NCBI GenBank assembly: GCA_000004985.1
Contig: GG739058.1
Origin: Naegleria gruberi
Lineage: Eukaryota
Strand: one strand, 5' to 3'
DNA length: 8,656 nt
Part shown: positions 453 to 8,275 of the stretch, one piece after another
How positions within the stretch are numbered: the first letter of the stretch is position 1
How the letters are laid out: each line of letters opens with the position of its first letter
The notes under the pieces: model-generated
The model's database searches: none
The model's input: only the letters and a program-made list of their open reading frames with translations
What the model was told of the DNA's origin: nothing
Made by a program: the position numbers and the translations under genes

Positions 453-1313
453 TTATTCTAATGGTCGAATGGAAACTTCTTCAGCAATCATTTCCTTGAC
501 ACCTGTTCCATCTTTCATTTCAACCATCAAGTTACCAAACTTGGAAATACCAACAGCTTTGGCAGTATATGATGGTGATTTATCTGATGGTGATATGGTA
601 ATATCCTTTCCAATAAGAATATCATGTGATTTGTACAGAGTAATTACATCCTTTTGTGAAAATGCCAATAAGTTTTCCAAAGTATTACACAATTGAGCAA
701 GAAATTTTTCTCTATCTACACTCTTATTAGTAGCATCAAGGAATGAAATGGCAACATTTGGAAGAGCATTTTCACCTTGGGTAAGTGATGTACTCTTGAA
801 TGAACTATTGAGATTAATTCCAATTCCTGCCAATGCAAATAAAGTTTCTCCAGATTGTACACTATCAATTAACATTCCACTAATTTTAGATGGAAGTGAA
901 TCCTTTTCGTTTGGAATGACCCAAACATCATTTGGCCATTTAATTCCACAATTTTCCAATCCTTCATCTCTCAAAGTAATAGTAATTGCCAAAGGAATTG
1001 CCAAATTAAGTTTTATCAATTCCTGTGCATTATCCAATCTAACATGAAATACAATAGTAAAATACAAATTCTTTCCCTTCCCTGCACTACTCCATTCTCT
1101 ACCTCTCCTTCCCCTTCCTTTGGTTTGTTCCTCTGCCAAGATGAGTGTTCCAGTCAAACAACCCTCCTCAGCCTCTCTCCTTCCAATGTCCATTGTTGTT
1201 TCCACTTGATTCCGATACACGATCGATCGTCCTATATAACTTGTTTTTAGTAATTCTTGAAAACGTTTAATACAAAATAGAGAGTCTTTGGTATTGGCGT
1301 AGATTTGTTCCAT
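453..1313 (-). CDS. Biotin--[acetyl-CoA-carboxylase] ligase / biotin-protein ligase (BirA catalytic-domain type, 286 aa, no DNA-binding N-domain). Coordinates include the stop codon.
   Basis: The track ORF contains the diagnostic biotin-protein-ligase motif ...EQTKGRGRRGREWSSAGKGKNLYFTIV (BirA family GRGRRGRxWxSP) and the KWPNDVWV motif (BirA KWPNDLY). A C-terminal SH3-like region follows (...SHDILIGKDITI...). Start context is aaaaaaaATGG; stop TAA is at 453-455. Confidence 0.88.
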   Translation of the reverse strand: MEQIYANTKDSLFCIKRFQELLKTSYIGRSIVYRNQVETTMDIGRREAEEGCLTGTLILAEEQTKGRGRRGREWSSAGKGKNLYFTIVFHVRLDNAQELIKLNLAIPLAITITLRDEGLENCGIKWPNDVWVIPNEKDSLPSKISGMLIDSVQSGETLFALAGIGINLNSSFKSTSLTQGENALPNVAISFLDATNKSVDREKFLAQLCNTLENLLAFSQKDVITLYKSHDILIGKDITISPSDKSPSYTAKAVGISKFGNLMVEMKDGTGVKEMIAEEVSIRPLE

Positions 1314-2326: not shown

Positions 2327-2723
2327 TTATTGTTGTTGAATTGACTTTTCCTTATCTCTATTGAGTAATTCTAACACATTGTGTGTTACCCAACTATTTG
2401 TCGGTATCTGCAATGGTTCTGCATACTTGTCCATTAAAATTTCATCTCCCTCTTTGAATTTTTCAATAAAGAGTGATTTTCTCTTTTCACTCTTGATGGA
2501 TTTGTAAGTATTGTTGGAGATGTGTAATTCATTAGTAATTCCAGTCATTTCCATTAGTTGAGCAATTTTAACATCAGACCCAAAGAGATCGTACGTTCTC
2601 TTCACTTTACCAACGACAGCTGCAATGACATCACCTCCTATTGAGGTGTGAATTCCAACTCTAACTTGTAAACTATTTCCTGTTGATTCTGAAAATTGAT
2701 TCACTGTTGTAATCATTAAAAGA
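2327..2723 (-). CDS. Class III nucleotidyl (adenylyl/guanylyl) cyclase catalytic domain, C-terminal fragment with a ~70-aa tail and stop. The 5' portion of the gene lies in the assembly gap. Coordinates include the stop.
   Basis: Interpretable translation: ...QFSESTGNSLQVRVGIHTSIGGDVIAAVVGKVKRTYDLFGSDVKIAQLMEMTGITNELHISNNTY... It aligns to the cyclase-homology-domain core (MRVGIHSGxVxxGVvGxxKxxYDvWGxxVNxAxxMESxG...IxVSxxTY). Stop TAA is at 2327-2329. Upstream sequence is N from 2724. Confidence 0.8.
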
Positions 2724-5700
2724 NNNNNNNNNNNNNNNNNNNNNNNNNNNNNNNNNNNNNNNNNNNNNNNNNNNNNNNNNNNNNNNNNNNNNNNNNNNNN
2801 NNNNNNNNNNNNNNNNNNNNNNNNNNNNNNNNNNNNNNNNNNNNNNNNNNNNNNNNNNNNNNNNNNNNNNNNNNNNNNNNNNNNNNNNNNNNNNNNNNNN
2901 NNNNNNNNNNNNNNNNNNNNNNNNNNNNNNNNNNNNNNNNNNNNNNNNNNNNNNNNNNNNNNNNNNNNNNNNNNNNNNNNNNNNNNNNNNNNNNNNNNNN
3001 NNNNNNNNNNNNNNNNNNNNNNNNNNNNNNNNNNNNNNNNNNNNNNNNNNNNNNNNNNNNNNNNNNNNNNNNNNNNNNNNNNNNNNNNNNNNNNNNNNNN
3101 NNNNNNNNNNNNNNNNNNNNNNNNNNNNNNNNNNNNNNNNNNNNNNNNNNNNNNNNNNNNNNNNNNNNNNNNNNNNNNNNNNNNNNNNNNNNNNNNNNNN
3201 NNNNNNNNNNNNNNNNNNNNNNNNNNNNNNNNNNNNNNNNNNNNNNNNNNNNNNNNNNNNNNNNNNNNNNNNNNNNNNNNNNNNNNNNNNNNNNNNNNNN
3301 NNNNNNNNNNNNNNNNNNNNNNNNNNNNNNNNNNNNNNNNNNNNNNNNNNNNNNNNNNNNNNNNNNNNNNNNNNNNNNNNNNNNNNNNNNNNNNNNNNNN
3401 NNNNNNNNNNNNNNNNNNNNNNNNNNNNNNNNNNNNNNNNNNNNNNNNNNNNNNNNNNNNNNNNNNNNNNNNNNNNNNNNNNNNNNNNNNNNNNNNNNNN
3501 NNNNNNNNNNNNNNNNNNNNNNNNNNNNNNNNNNNNNNNNNNNNNNNNNNNNNNNNNNNNNNNNNNNNNNNNNNNNNNNNNNNNNNNNNNNNNNNNNNNN
3601 NNNNNNNNNNNNNNNNNNNNNNNNNNNNNNNNNNNNNNNNNNNNNNNNNNNNNNNNNNNNNNNNNNNNNNNNNNNNNNNNNNNNNNNNNNNNNNNNNNNN
3701 NNNNNNNNNNNNNNNNNNNNNNNNNNNNNNNNNNNNNNNNNNNNNNNNNNNNNNNNNNNNNNNNNNNNNNNNNNNNNNNNNNNNNNNNNNNNNNNNNNNN
3801 NNNNNNNNNNNNNNNNNNNNNNNNNNNNNNNNNNNNNNNNNNNNNNNNNNNNNNNNNNNNNNNNNNNNNNNNNNNNNNNNNNNNNNNNNNNNNNNNNNNN
3901 NNNNNNNNNNNNNNNNNNNNNNNNNNNNNNNNNNNNNNNNNNNNNNNNNNNNNNNNNNNNNNNNNNNNNNNNNNNNNNNNNNNNNNNNNNNNNNNNNNNN
4001 NNNNNNNNNNNNNNNNNNNNNNNNNNNNNNNNNNNNNNNNNNNNNNNNNNNNNNNNNNNNNNNNNNNNNNNNNNNNNNNNNNNNNNNNNNNNNNNNNNNN
4101 NNNNNNNNNNNNNNNNNNNNNNNNNNNNNNNNNNNNNNNNNNNNNNNNNNNNNNNNNNNNNNNNNNNNNNNNNNNNNNNNNNNNNNNNNNNNNNNNNNNN
4201 NNNNNNNNNNNNNNNNNNNNNNNNNNNNNNNNNNNNNNNNNNNNNNNNNNNNNNNNNNNNNNNNNNNNNNNNNNNNNNNNNNNNNNNNNNNNNNNNNNNN
4301 NNNNNNNNNNNNNNNNNNNNNNNNNNNNNNNNNNNNNNNNNNNNNNNNNNNNNNNNNNNNNNNNNNNNNNNNNNNNNNNNNNNNNNNNNNNNNNNNNNNN
4401 NNNNNNNNNNNNNNNNNNNNNNNNNNNNNNNNNNNNNNNNNNNNNNNNNNNNNNNNNNNNNNNNNNNNNNNNNNNNNNNNNNNNNNNNNNNNNNNNNNNN
4501 NNNNNNNNNNNNNNNNNNNNNNNNNNNNNNNNNNNNNNNNNNNNNNNNNNNNNNNNNNNNNNNNNNNNNNNNNNNNNNNNNNNNNNNNNNNNNNNNNNNN
4601 NNNNNNNNNNNNNNNNNNNNNNNNNNNNNNNNNNNNNNNNNNNNNNNNNNNNNNNNNNNNNNNNNNNNNNNNNNNNNNNNNNNNNNNNNNNNNNNNNNNN
4701 NNNNNNNNNNNNNNNNNNNNNNNNNNNNNNNNNNNNNNNNNNNNNNNNNNNNNNNNNNNNNNNNNNNNNNNNNNNNNNNNNNNNNNNNNNNNNNNNNNNN
4801 NNNNNNNNNNNNNNNNNNNNNNNNNNNNNNNNNNNNNNNNNNNNNNNNNNNNNNNNNNNNNNNNNNNNNNNNNNNNNNNNNNNNNNNNNNNNNNNNNNNN
4901 NNNNNNNNNNNNNNNNNNNNNNNNNNNNNNNNNNNNNNNNNNNNNNNNNNNNNNNNNNNNNNNNNNNNNNNNNNNNNNNNNNNNNNNNNNNNNNNNNNNN
5001 NNNNNNNNNNNNNNNNNNNNNNNNNNNNNNNNNNNNNNNNNNNNNNNNNNNNNNNNNNNNNNNNNNNNNNNNNNNNNNNNNNNNNNNNNNNNNNNNNNNN
5101 NNNNNNNNNNNNNNNNNNNNNNNNNNNNNNNNNNNNNNNNNNNNNNNNNNNNNNNNNNNNNNNNNNNNNNNNNNNNNNNNNNNNNNNNNNNNNNNNNNNN
5201 NNNNNNNNNNNNNNNNNNNNNNNNNNNNNNNNNNNNNNNNNNNNNNNNNNNNNNNNNNNNNNNNNNNNNNNNNNNNNNNNNNNNNNNNNNNNNNNNNNNN
5301 NNNNNNNNNNNNNNNNNNNNNNNNNNNNNNNNNNNNNNNNNNNNNNNNNNNNNNNNNNNNNNNNNNNNNNNNNNNNNNNNNNNNNNNNNNNNNNNNNNNN
5401 NNNNNNNNNNNNNNNNNNNNNNNNNNNNNNNNNNNNNNNNNNNNNNNNNNNNNNNNNNNNNNNNNNNNNNNNNNNNNNNNNNNNNNNNNNNNNNNNNNNN
5501 NNNNNNNNNNNNNNNNNNNNNNNNNNNNNNNNNNNNNNNNNNNNNNNNNNNNNNNNNNNNNNNNNNNNNNNNNNNNNNNNNNNNNNNNNNNNNNNNNNNN
5601 NNNNNNNNNNNNNNNNNNNNNNNNNNNNNNNNNNNNNNNNNNNNNNNNNNNNNNNNNNNNNNNNNNNNNNNNNNNNNNNNNNNNNNNNNNNNNNNNNNNN

Positions 5701-6433
5701 NNNNNNNNNNNNNNNNNNNNNNNNNNNNNNNNNNNNNNNNNNNNNNNNNNNNNNNNNNNNNNNNNNNNNNNNNNNNNNNNNNNNNNNNNNNNNNNNNNNN
5801 NNNNNNNNNNNNNNNNNNNNNNNNNNNNNNNNNNNNNNNNNNNNNNNNNNNNNNNNNNNNNNNNNNNNNNNNNNNNNNNNNNNNNNNNNNNNNNNNNNNN
5901 NNNNNNNNNNNNNNNNNNNNNNNNNNNNNNNNNNNNNNNNNNNNNNNNNNNNNNNNNNNNNNNNNNNNNNNNNNNNNNNNNNNNNNNNNNNNNNNNNNNN
6001 NNNNNNNNNNNNNNNNNNNNNNNNNNNNNNNNNNNNNNNNNNNNNNNNNNNNNNNNNNNNNNNNNNNNNNNNNNNNNNNNNNNNNNNNNNNNNNNNNNNN
6101 NNNNNNNNNNNNNNNNNNNNNNNNNNNNNNNNNNNNNNNNNNNNNNNNNNNNNNNNNNNNNNNNNNNNNNNNNNNNNNNNNNNNNNNNNNNNNNNNNNNN
6201 NNNNNNNNNNNNNNNNNNNNNNNNNNNNNNNNNNNNNNNNNNNNNNNNNNNNNNNNNNNNNNNNNNNNNNNNNNNNNNNNNNNNNNNNNNNNNNNNNNNN
6301 NNNNNNNNNNNNNNNNNNNNNNNNNNNNNNNNNNNNNNNNNNNNNNNNNNNNNNNNNNNNNNNNNNNNNNNNNNNNNNNNNNNNNNNNNNNNNNNNNNNN
6401 NNNNNNNNNNNNNNNNNNNNNNNNNNNNNNNNN
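2724..6433. other. Assembly/scaffold gap: 3,710 consecutive N.
   Basis: Read directly. The 1,386-aa track ORF 2327..6487 is mostly X and arises from translating N. The real genes flanking the gap are the cyclase (-) and the kinase (+). Confidence 0.99.
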
Positions 6434-6471: not shown

Positions 6472-6830
6472 ATGGATAGATATACAAATTTGGTAAAGAT
6501 TGGACAAGGTGGAAGTGTGTTTAAAGTGAATGACACTAAATGTAATAATGAAGTCAAAGCAATCAAAGTGGTTAGATTTGATAACCATGAAGATTTGAAC
6601 GTGACTATGAGAGAAGGAATTCAACTTTTAAAGATGAATCACCCAAATGTTCTCAAAGTGAATGATTTCTTTATTGGAAATGGTCAAATTCTATGTATTG
6701 ATATGACTTATTATGAGATGGGTGATTTGAATAGACTCATCACTGGATCCAAATTTTGTTCAGAACTGTTAATTGCTCAAATATTATTTCAATCTTGCAG
6801 TGCCTTGGATTATATTTTCATCAACTTTGG
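6472..6830 (+). CDS. Serine/threonine protein kinase, exon 1 (subdomains I-VIa). The first in-frame ATG after the gap was used. The frame is also open back to 6434, so the true start could lie in the gap.
   Basis: The Gly-loop IGQGGSVFKV and the catalytic Lys in VKAIKV are present. The exon ends at ttt gg|GTAAGT (donor at 6831), so the codon is split in phase 2. Confidence 0.8.
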
Positions 6831-6877
6831 GTAAGTTTAGAAACATATTAAAATATGTGGATTTAACACTAAATCAG

Positions 6878-7325
6878 AGTTATTCACAGAGATATTAAAC
6901 CTTCCAATATTTTCATTCAGAAAATGAATGATTCAGCCATTGACATTATCATTGCTGATTTTGGTTTGGCAAAAAACTCAAAACAATCAACCAGTTTTTC
7001 ATTAGCTGGAACTCCATTGTATATTTCACCAGAATTGTTGTGTGGAATTTCATGTGATCATAAAACTGATATATTCAGTTTGGGAGTTACTCTATACCAG
7101 ATTCTATCTCATGATACAACAACTTCCATCAATCAAATGTACATGTTAAAGGATTCTGAAACTGTCAAACAAATATTAAAGGAGAAGATTAGTTTACAGA
7201 TCTATTCATTAGAGTTGGTGGAGTTGGTGTTTAGCATGTTGGAGAAGGATCCAGAAAGACGACCAGATGCTGGTTCTATTTTAAAACATCACTACTTTTC
7301 ACAAAGAGGGTTGAATAACAATTAA
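6878..7325 (+). CDS. Serine/threonine protein kinase, exon 2 (subdomains VIb-XI, with stop). The intron is 6831..6877 (47 nt, GTAAGT...TTAAC...CAG).
   Basis: After splicing, gg+a gives Gly, and the exon continues VIHRDIKPSNIFIQ...IADFGLAK...GTPLYISPE...DIFSLGVTLYQIL...DPERRPDAG. These are the HRDxKPxN catalytic loop, DFG, the Ser/Thr-type activation and P+1 loop, and subdomain XI. Exon 1 (359 nt) plus exon 2 (445 nt to the stop) gives 804 nt, i.e. 268 codons exactly. In the exon-2 frame, a TAA at 6870-6872 closes the frame just upstream of the acceptor, as expected for an intron. Confidence 0.82.
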
Positions 7326-7513: not shown

Positions 7514-8275
7514 TTATTTACAAATTTTGAAAAAAGGACTTCCATTAGAAACGCATCTACTGCATAGCTTTCCATAGCAATCAGCATCAGAGTTACACAT
7601 AGTTAGACCTCCACAATTACATACAGCCATGTTACAATGGTTATTATTACAATTATCGGCTGGGCACAATAGTTTAGGATTATTGTAACAGTCACAGGAC
7701 AATACACGGCAGAGACCTGAAGGCAATAATCCTTCGAAATGATTGCTTCCTAAATGGATTCCAGTTAGTGAGGGTATTTCACCATACTCTTTTGGAATTT
7801 GACCTCCAATTGCATTGAATGCCAAATTAATAATCATGACACTTTGTAAAGAATCAGCAATTCCAGTTGGCAAGACACCTGTCAAGTTATTTCTTGCCAA
7901 ATTCAAAGACAAGACATTGTATTGATTTCCGATACATTTGACACCATACCAAGAGCAAAAGTTTGTCTCTTTACCAGTATCCATAGTATTCCAACCAGTA
8001 TTATTTCTCCAATAATGACCTCCAGTTGACAAGTAAAATTTACGTAAGAAATCTCTTTCGGATAGACCTTCACTGTCACTTTCAGCAAAGAACTCGAGTT
8101 GTTCTTTGAGTCTGTCAATTCTCCTTTGAAATTTTTCCAAATCTCTCTTGTAACCAATATTACGATCACGAAGAAGAGAAGATGATAGTTTGTTACTTCT
8201 TCCTTCTGCGCTCCGAGCAGAAACTATTACCACCATCAAAAACAGAACGAAAAGAGCAAGGACAGGGGCTTTCAT
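7514..8275 (-). CDS. Secreted leucine-rich-repeat protein: signal peptide, coiled/charged linker, LRRNT_2-like cap (CSWYGVKC), three plant-specific-type 24-residue LRRs, and a cysteine-rich C-terminal tail. 253 aa; coordinates include the stop.
   Basis: N-terminus MKAPVLALFVLFLMVVIVSARSA is a hydrophobic signal peptide. NFCSWYGVKC matches the CxWxGVxC cap of extracellular plant-type LRR domains. The repeats LSLNLARNNLTGVLPTGIADSLQS, VMIINLAFNAIGGQIPKEYGEIPS and LTGIHLGSNHFEGLLPSGLC fit LxxLxLxxNxLsGxIPxxlgxlxx. The last 60 aa contain 13 Cys. There are N-glycosylation sequons (NNT, NLT). Confidence 0.75.
   Translation of the reverse strand: MKAPVLALFVLFLMVVIVSARSAEGRSNKLSSSLLRDRNIGYKRDLEKFQRRIDRLKEQLEFFAESDSEGLSERDFLRKFYLSTGGHYWRNNTGWNTMDTGKETNFCSWYGVKCIGNQYNVLSLNLARNNLTGVLPTGIADSLQSVMIINLAFNAIGGQIPKEYGEIPSLTGIHLGSNHFEGLLPSGLCRVLSCDCYNNPKLLCPADNCNNNHCNMAVCNCGGLTMCNSDADCYGKLCSRCVSNGSPFFKICK

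Follow-up and report, generated by a model that had tools for sequence, protein, structure and literature searches.

The small Naegleria gruberi scaffold GG739058.1 raises the question of what a class III cyclase domain may still do once the Asn and Arg residues assigned to transition-state stabilization have disappeared from it. The scaffold was analyzed over its whole length of 8,656 bases, hereafter referred to as the window, and carries on its minus strand the 3' end of a gene whose product terminates in such a domain. Comparison with full-length relatives assigned this gene, by homology, to a paralog family of soluble proteins from Naegleria and Willaertia, in whose members studied so far the NxxxR motif, i.e., the catalytic Asn located four residues before the catalytic Arg (PMC12264004), is missing throughout. 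The domain of the window probably either depends on a partner enzyme or has ceased to produce cAMP, and of these two options the former is tentatively favored below. The features of the cyclase gene were located as follows:

2327..2329, minus strand: TAA stop codon of the cyclase gene, end of the open reading frame, read directly from the sequence
2330..2482, minus strand: family-specific C-terminal tail, codons 81-131, replacing the canonical '...RG..VKGKG.M.TYFL' end
2483..2722, minus strand: C-terminal half of the class III cyclase-homology domain, codons 1-80 (Pfam PF00211)
2555..2557, minus strand: Leu56 at the catalytic Arg position of NxxxR, aligned to the R of 'ASRM'
2567..2569, minus strand: Lys52 at the catalytic Asn position of NxxxR, aligned to the N of AC8 C2 'TVNLASRM'
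2588..2590, minus strand: Asp45 (TY-D-LFG), adenine-specifying position, present (HMMER and MAFFT)
2660..2662, minus strand: Arg21 (QV-R-VGIH), equivalent of the phosphate-binding Arg, present (aligned to AC9 C1 and AC8 C2)
2724..6433, no strand: assembly gap of 3,710 N, cutting the cyclase gene at its 5' side

The window represents the entire scaffold, 43% of which consists of N, and its base composition outside the gap is AT-rich (approximately 31% G+C). Between the gap edge and the stop codon, the minus-strand frame remains open for 131 codons (frame 2330-2722, with codon 1 at 2720-2722), and the visible fragment is 100% identical to the N. gruberi 'predicted protein' NAEGRDRAFT_76633 (129 aa). 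This database entry is a 3' fragment, its annotated start Met being the first Met after the gap and an artefact of that gap. Judged from the relatives described below, approximately 1.5-2.7 kb of coding sequence are missing, for which the 3.7-kb gap is large enough. By homology, the sequence concealed by the gap would encode two PAS domains, preceded by an N-terminal region and followed by a linker helix, along with the part of the cyclase domain ahead of codon 1, this part presumably carrying both metal-binding Asp residues and the purine-binding Lys. A plus-strand open reading frame overlapping the cyclase fragment (2361-2507, 48 aa) was treated as spurious.

Codons 1-80 matched positions 83-157 of the 183 positions of the Guanylate_cyc profile (PF00211) with an E value of 2.5e-17 and a score of 63.5 bits, which lies above the curated cut-off of 21.9 bits, and the fragment also matched solved adenylyl and guanylyl cyclases with E values down to 1.4e-14. 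With matches of this strength, chance can be dismissed, and the fragment represents the C-terminal half of a cyclase-homology domain of class III. Individual residues were assigned by means of HMMER alignments to the adenylyl cyclases AC8 and AC9 (AC5 was also aligned) together with MAFFT alignments. HMMER aligned the window segment 'KRTYDLFGSDVKIAQLMEMTG' with AC8 C2 and with the segment 'KLLYDIWGDTVNIASRMDTTG' of AC9 C2. The canonical TV-N-xAS-R-M is represented by DV-K-IAQ-L-M in the window. Arg21 aligned with the R of 'MRVGVHTG' in AC9 C1 and with the R of 'LRIGIS' in AC8 C2. Hence, the visible half of the domain lacks NxxxR and retains the phosphate-binding Arg as well as the adenine-specifying Asp, the metal-binding Asp residues being visible in the relatives alone.

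These assignments agree in large part with the initial annotation of the window, which had proposed a class III cyclase domain at the C-terminus of the encoded protein, Asp at the purine-specificity position, and replacement of both Asn and Arg. The profile match, together with the stop at 2327-2329, bears out the first point and Asp45 in the alignments with AC8 and AC9 the second, and both catalytic residues are indeed missing (K52 and L56). The Asn position had, however, been placed in the 'GS-D-V' stretch, and corresponds instead to the Lys of DVK within NxxxR; after this correction of the alignment, the canonical positions are still occupied by Lys and Leu rather than by Asn and Arg. Among the canonical catalytic positions, those of the adenine-specifying Asp, the Asn, and the Arg could be read in the window, whereas the metal-binding Asp residues and the purine-binding Lys lie in the gap.

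To which proteins the fragment is related was determined by an exhaustive HMMER search. The closest proteins all originated from Naegleria or Willaertia, each with one matched stretch at the extreme C-terminus, and short environmental fragments were also among the closest relatives:

P0003, N. gruberi (NAEGRDRAFT_82217), 1005 aa: 57-58% identity to the fragment (E 6.9e-32), closest paralog
P0009, N. gruberi, 665 aa: 50% identity to the fragment
P0004, N. lovaniensis, 646 aa: 48% identity to the fragment
P0005, N. fowleri, 635 aa: 47% identity to the fragment
P0008, N. fowleri, 619 aa: 47% identity to the fragment
P0006, N. gruberi, 654 aa: 44% identity to the fragment
P0018, N. lovaniensis, 868 aa: 39% identity to the fragment

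A second search added P0157 (N. gruberi), P0159 (Willaertia magna), P0160 (N. lovaniensis), and P0161 (N. fowleri). All seven full-length relatives scanned with Pfam (family range 619-1005 aa) featured two PAS domains followed by a single Guanylate_cyc domain. No transmembrane-like segment was found in the relatives, the maximum hydropathy over 19 residues ranging between 1.25 and 1.84 and always falling on core strands of the PAS or cyclase domains, compared to values of up to 2.5 (KD19) for two-domain membrane cyclases used as controls. The tail motif LF..x..EE..L(E/D)K.G...IP..T(W/F/Y)IT was found to be conserved across the family, window included. On this basis, members of the family are predicted to begin with an N-terminus that varies, to continue with PAS-A, a PAS-B of the FixL type, and a linker helix, and to end in a single cyclase domain, and the same layout is expected for the gene of the window by homology.

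Several further observations were made on individual family members. Residues 295-401 of P0003 and 157-266 of P0018 lie in long N-terminal regions and contain four to six repeats of the type L-x-(R/K)-E-(N/S)-S. Those of P0003 (five LQRENS and one LQRESS) resemble phosphorylation sites of basophilic kinases (R-x-x-S), and the repeats of both proteins could, judging from their sequence, mean feedback control. Some publicly available gene models feature internal deletions, namely P0161, which is devoid of the segment with the first metal-binding Asp, and P0004 and P0006, in which PAS-B is incomplete; wrongly called introns, and not real losses, are the probable cause of these deletions. In the environmental homolog L001 (metagenome contig ERZ27315067 k141_364858), a 39-nt GT..AG intron was noticed inside the cyclase domain (positions 346-464), just before the second metal-binding Asp (KT|IGDCYF); the gene caller had reported two products of 114 aa, and splicing restores the complete domain. 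This contig (1,029 bp) and L004 (5,268 bp) are the nearest environmental homologs and hold just the 3' parts of their genes.

The state of the catalytic positions across the family, counted for the relatives covering each alignment column, was as follows:

First metal-binding Asp: D in 11 of 12 relatives (E in P0018)
Second metal-binding Asp: D in 14 of 14 relatives
Adenine-binding Lys: K in 13 of 14 relatives (A in P0007)
Phosphate-binding Arg: R in 14 of 15 relatives (K in P0018)
Adenine-specifying Asp: D in 15 of 15 relatives
Catalytic Asn position: N in none; the relatives have E, A, T, L, H, or Q, the window K
Catalytic Arg position: R in none; the relatives have L, M, or I, the window L

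NxxxR is accordingly missing in all 15 relatives, and the spliced L001 homolog shows the same catalytic pattern as the family. The nearest relatives outside the family, by contrast, read WGD.VN.A(S/A)RME at this site; they comprise bacterial cyclases as well as P0163-P0165 and P0168, in which PAS domains are combined with a cyclase domain and which stem from uncultured eukaryotes or transcriptomes, all of them possessing N and R. Since these neighbors invariably keep both residues, loss of NxxxR is specific for the family and took place in the ancestor of the Naegleria/Willaertia proteins. The conservation pattern suggests that the residues for Mg-ATP binding (two metal-binding Asp, the Lys/Asp pair, and the phosphate-binding Arg) stayed under constraint while the NxxxR pair was lost. 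Decay has proceeded further in P0018 (first Asp to Glu, phosphate-binding Arg to Lys, and GFT to GIS) and in P0007 (Lys to Ala).

The same comparison bears on the concern that the fragment might belong to a pseudogene in decay or result from faulty assembly of a small orphan scaffold, with substitutions devoid of meaning. A scaffold of only 8.7 kb with 43% N and a truncated gene model would fit such a view. Nevertheless, the frame stays open over 131 codons up to a stop located where the homologs predict it, identical substitutions recur in every intact paralog and ortholog, and structural residues are conserved at 57-58% identity to the closest paralog, which renders this explanation highly improbable.

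The sensor part, which would lie in the gap in the case of the window gene, was studied by means of the paralog P0157. Its PAS-B domain matched the haem domain of Rhizobium meliloti FixL (1d06) with an E value of 7.5e-19 and with the proximal His aligned ('RQKHDYYLQRYLKTGEKRVVD'); further matches were to FixL of Bradyrhizobium and to E. coli DosP. In all 13 aligned sequences, this His (H390 of P0157) was invariant. PAS-B of the family is thus presumably haem-binding, and the same may be expected for the window gene from its homology to these proteins. For PAS-A, no significant relative was found among solved structures. The AlphaFold2 model of P0157 reached a mean predicted local distance difference test (pLDDT) value of 68, lowered by a disordered N-terminus, with block means mostly between 67 and 87 for the PAS domains and mostly between 76 and 95 for the cyclase domain. 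In this model, the family-specific tail forms four beta strands (block means of 76-95 over the last 50 residues), and the strands of the cyclase domain run to within three residues of the C-terminus, confirming that the cyclase domain is the last one in the protein, as had been annotated initially. Best Foldseek matches of the model were the alpha and beta chains of soluble guanylyl cyclase (sGC), dimeric FixL PAS-A/PAS-B, DosP, and isolated cyclase domains, the target-normalized template modeling scores against cyclase domains ranging between 0.63 and 0.84.

The domain had further been described as almost residue-for-residue identical to the C1 half of mammalian adenylyl cyclases and had been viewed in the frame of the 12-transmembrane enzymes, with a pseudo-heterodimer of swapped domain order among the options offered. 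Likeness to C1 was evaluated using the best 150 representatives of the exhaustive HMMER search, 133 of which contain two cyclase domains. In 107 of these 133, the fragment scored best on the first (C1-type) domain, and the N/R pair was kept in 31 first domains versus 100 second domains. AC9 C1 also features Leu at the Arg position ('DVNLANLME' versus 'DVKIAQLME' in the window). For AC9, HMMER scores were higher for C1 (32.6 bits) than for C2 (20.5 bits), whereas the order was reversed for AC8 (24.8 bits for C1 and 29.8 bits for C2). Over 74 aligned columns, identity amounted to 41% for complete single-domain cyclases, 35% for AC9 C1, and 30% for AC9 C2. Accordingly, 'C1-like' is a fair description of the catalytic signature as read from the alignments, while the residue-for-residue wording was overstated, considering the 35% identity to AC9 C1. 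Descent from a two-domain cyclase of Naegleria was considered and rejected, the ten nearest two-domain matches checked originating from chytrids, a nematode, Diphylleia, and metagenomes. Given that these matches are not from Naegleria and that identity is higher to complete single-domain cyclases, the C1-like signature looks like a secondary loss.

The 12-transmembrane frame does not fit full-length relatives that are soluble, have two PAS domains and one cyclase domain, and are devoid of transmembrane-like segments. A swapped domain order is a real arrangement elsewhere, and for the window it would mean that the gap hides a first, Asn/Arg-bearing domain, giving a two-domain pseudo-heterodimer in inverted order (C2-like, then C1-like) as in alveolate guanylyl cyclases. 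In T. gondii, the second cyclase domain (GC2) possesses the metal-binding Asp residues, and L/M occupy the places of Asn/Arg (PMC6592433), the transcriptome protein P0167 is arranged in this manner, and the 3.7-kb gap could physically hold another domain. Yet each of the seven scanned full-length relatives has exactly one cyclase domain, following the two PAS domains, the closest paralog (58% identity) being among these single-domain proteins and sharing the family-specific tail with the window, and the family has no transmembrane-like segments, so that an inverted two-domain protein is very improbable here. P0167 itself (772 aa, EukProt) is a two-domain membrane cyclase of inverted order; in its first domain, a metal-binding Asp is changed to Asn ('KTITNCY') and N..R is kept ('WGDTCNVSSRM'), and its second domain retains both metal-binding Asp residues with S/L at the Asn/Arg positions.

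What the loss of NxxxR would entail follows from the architecture of the class III active site, which is located at the dimer interface. One monomer contributes two metal-binding Asp residues and the phosphate-binding Arg, and the other the base-specifying pair together with the transition-state-stabilizing Asn and Arg (PMC6592433). A homodimer of the window protein would therefore be expected to bind Mg-ATP and to cyclize it poorly or not at all, as deduced from two precedents. The R376A variant of the homodimeric Rv1625c is inactive and complements the metal-site mutant D300A to form an active dimer (PMC4821796). The second precedent, NeoR, is a natural single-domain protein devoid of NxxxR (T455/K459) with metal and base residues kept, the catalytic domain of which shows no activity by itself and depends on RGC1 or RGC2 (PMC12264004). 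NxxxR is likewise absent in soluble adenylyl cyclase (sAC) and transmembrane adenylyl cyclases (tmAC), which are heterodimeric systems with a single active site (PMC12264004).

As NxxxR was selectively lost with the remainder of the site retained, representing the signature of C1, of sGC alpha, or of NeoR, the explanation ranked first is that the domain would form the side of a heterodimer on which metal and ATP are held. A partner cyclase domain would supply NxxxR, and the PAS sensors would regulate the shared active site. We propose such a partner-dependent, metal-donating subunit tentatively, on the basis of residue patterns and analogy. The functional reading rests on paralogs and on analogy, half of the domain being visible in the window.

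Several results weigh against this proposal. The portion of the window gene upstream of residue 1 lies within the gap, its layout being deduced from the relatives. No NxxxR-bearing partner was identified in a search that was incomplete; among the close relatives with the family-specific tail, none carries NxxxR, and there is no sister subfamily of the kind known from sGC alpha and beta. Furthermore, no cyclase gene was found beside the family members in L002, L003, and L004, the loci checked being a 14-kb N. fowleri-like contig, a 22-kb Willaertia locus, and a 5-kb metagenome contig, whereas the neor, rgc1, and rgc2 genes are clustered (PMC12264004). The retained Lys/Asp base pair would also suit a symmetric, ATP-binding homodimer equally well. 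An indexed search with PAS-A and PAS-B for a partner sharing the sensor, which was lossy, yielded one Naegleria-like fragment and two bacterial FixL proteins. The loss inherent in the word-indexed homolog searches is evident from the fact that the query sources P0003 and P0157 were not returned and that P0009 and P0018 were missed, and negative results from them do not represent absence; for comparison, Naegleria was reported to possess at least 81 cyclases (PMC9928731).

These points lead to an alternative in which the family consists of non-catalytic pseudo-cyclases, i.e., PAS-linked homodimers holding Mg-ATP in two symmetric dead sites, with a nucleotide-sensing, dimerizing, or regulatory output. 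It is in line with the absence of NxxxR from all paralogs found, with the lack of a complementary subfamily or adjacent partner gene among those seen, with the further decay of P0018 and P0007, and with the inactivation of Rv1625c by loss of the Arg alone (PMC4821796). However, the characterized domains that have lost only NxxxR, with the metal-binding Asp residues and the phosphate-binding Arg retained, are all heterodimer halves (tmAC C1, sAC C1, sGC alpha, NeoR, and alveolate GC2), and conservation of the metal-binding Asp residues over at least four species and several paralogs exceeds what a scaffold role needs. A pseudo-cyclase is regarded as a serious alternative, although somewhat less likely than the partner-dependent subunit.

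Alternatively, the proteins might be active homodimeric adenylyl cyclases under control of the haem-PAS sensor, being slow or stabilizing the transition state by means of substitute residues. Candidates for the latter would be the Lys/Arg that precedes YDLFG in the family and the Lys conserved in the tail motif (E/D)K.G. Such an activity would explain why the ATP- and metal-binding residues are kept, including a Lys/Asp pair that is not strictly needed by a pure C1-type half, and cyclase output would be ancestral, given that the nearest outside relatives are haem-PAS proteins with complete cyclase domains. On the other hand, there is free variation where the Asn is expected (K, E, A, T, L, H, and Q), the Arg position is always hydrophobic, and no substitute residue is conserved within the motif. 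Rv1625c without this Arg is inactive (PMC4821796), and the NeoR catalytic domain, naturally devoid of NxxxR, is inactive as well (PMC12264004). An active homodimer is thus considered unlikely, and less so a subunit depending on a partner, which remains the preferred explanation.

Comparison with known systems further delimits the partner-dependent subunit. The family resembles sGC alpha in its soluble sensor-PAS-coiled-coil-cyclase layout, and sGC alpha was the best Foldseek match of the P0157 model (8hbe_A, E 1.4e-17) as well as the best sequence match of the paralog cyclase domain in the PDB apart from adenylyl cyclases (6pas_A, E 3.6e-30, compared to 1.1e-18 for beta). The sGC alpha subunit supplies the metal-binding Asp residues and is devoid of the N/R pair. 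Unlike the family, for which no beta-like paralog was found, sGC features a dedicated beta paralog carrying N/R and a haem H-NOX domain, whereas in the family the putative haem site resides in a PAS domain of the FixL type within the cyclase chain itself, and the base pair is Lys/Asp (ATP). AC9 C1 shares with the fragment the absence of the catalytic Arg (Leu in its place), the Asp at the purine position, and the phosphate-binding Arg; its identity to the fragment (35%) is nevertheless below that of complete single-domain cyclases (41%), and C1 of mammalian tmAC is the first of two domains in a 12-transmembrane chain, in contrast to the single C-terminal domain of a family that is soluble by homology.

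NeoR, a subunit of chytrid rhodopsin-guanylyl cyclases, likewise combines a sensor with a single cyclase domain lacking NxxxR and keeping metal and base residues (PMC12264004). It differs in that its sensor is a rhodopsin and not a PAS domain, that it is membrane-bound and guanine-specific (E/C), and that RGC1 and RGC2 have been established as its partners, with genes located next to its own, while none is adjacent in the family loci examined. Alveolate GC2 (of TgATPaseP-GC, PMC6592433) is similar as a C-terminal domain with metal-binding Asp residues, the phosphate-binding Arg, and hydrophobic L and M at the Asn/Arg positions, but belongs to a giant P4-ATPase membrane protein with two cyclase domains, in which GC1 provides N/R in cis. 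Rv1625c R376A, cited from Guo et al. 2001 in PMC4821796, is comparable as a homodimer-type domain without the transition-state Arg that becomes active once a partner supplies Arg; unlike the family, it is a laboratory mutant and not naturally conserved. The nearest relatives outside the family are haem-PAS (FixL-like) proteins of uncultured eukaryotes with a complete cyclase domain, together with bacterial PAS/GAF/HAMP cyclases (P0163-P0168, P0174, P0193, and P0216). Across PAS-B, linker, and cyclase domain, they matched with E values between 1e-57 and 1e-41, share the FixL-like motif 'HD.Y...Y..TG', and are approximately 40-45% identical in the cyclase domain; in contrast to the family, WGD.VN.ASRME and the KGKG end are kept, and they are predicted to be complete homodimeric cyclases. 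Degenerate cyclase domains themselves are of a known kind. The combination of a soluble FixL-type PAS sensor with a single cyclase domain and loss of NxxxR in all paralogs of the lineage appears to be undescribed in the literature searched.

The remaining genes of the window are seemingly unrelated to the cyclase gene:

453-1313, minus strand: gene of the biotin/lipoate ligase family
6472-6834 and 6924-7325, plus strand: split protein kinase gene
7514-8275, minus strand: gene for a leucine-rich-repeat protein

The two kinase open reading frames correspond to positions 1-115 and 135-263 of the Pkinase profile and are separated by approximately 90 nt, presumably an intron; the 5' end of the kinase gene is located approximately 40 nt from the gap edge, and it is the next gene beyond the gap. 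The leucine-rich-repeat protein (253 aa) features a hydrophobic N-terminal leader, leucine-rich repeats, and a Cys-rich C-terminus, and looks secreted or surface-exposed. Between the ligase and cyclase genes, the region 1620-2240 showed a G+C content of 0.34-0.35, compared to 0.26-0.31 nearby, as well as a positive GC skew, and contained no open reading frame of more than 60 aa. No tRNA and no Rfam family were detected in the window, nor in a relaxed scan of 1550-2330 (E<=1). The region could represent an unannotated non-coding RNA, untranslated regions, or small exons.

As regards annotation, it is advisable to mark NAEGRDRAFT_76633 as a 3' fragment and not to record it as a functional adenylate/guanylate cyclase from homology alone. 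For the biology of the family, it is of importance that a metal site kept without NxxxR is a hallmark of asymmetric, allosterically controlled cyclases such as tmAC, sAC, sGC, and NeoR. Here, this signature has become fixed throughout a family of soluble proteins, each with one cyclase domain and probably a haem-PAS sensor. The family occurs in Naegleria, a genus with 80-100 cyclases to which the pathogen N. fowleri belongs. More speculatively, and with some doubt, the proteins may be lineage-specific haem-PAS 'alpha-like' obligate subunits that would impose O2/NO/CO control on ordinary cyclases by forming heterodimers with them, or else the first haem-regulated ATP-binding pseudo-cyclases. 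If partners are not needed, the family would offer natural test cases for the role of an ATP-binding, non-catalytic cyclase domain. If they are needed, combinatorial heterodimer signaling, possibly regulated by gases, would exist well outside animals and fungi, and, should the 'alpha-like' gas-sensor reading be true, it would represent an equivalent of soluble guanylyl cyclase that is built on PAS domains and arose by convergence in a deep-branching amoeba.

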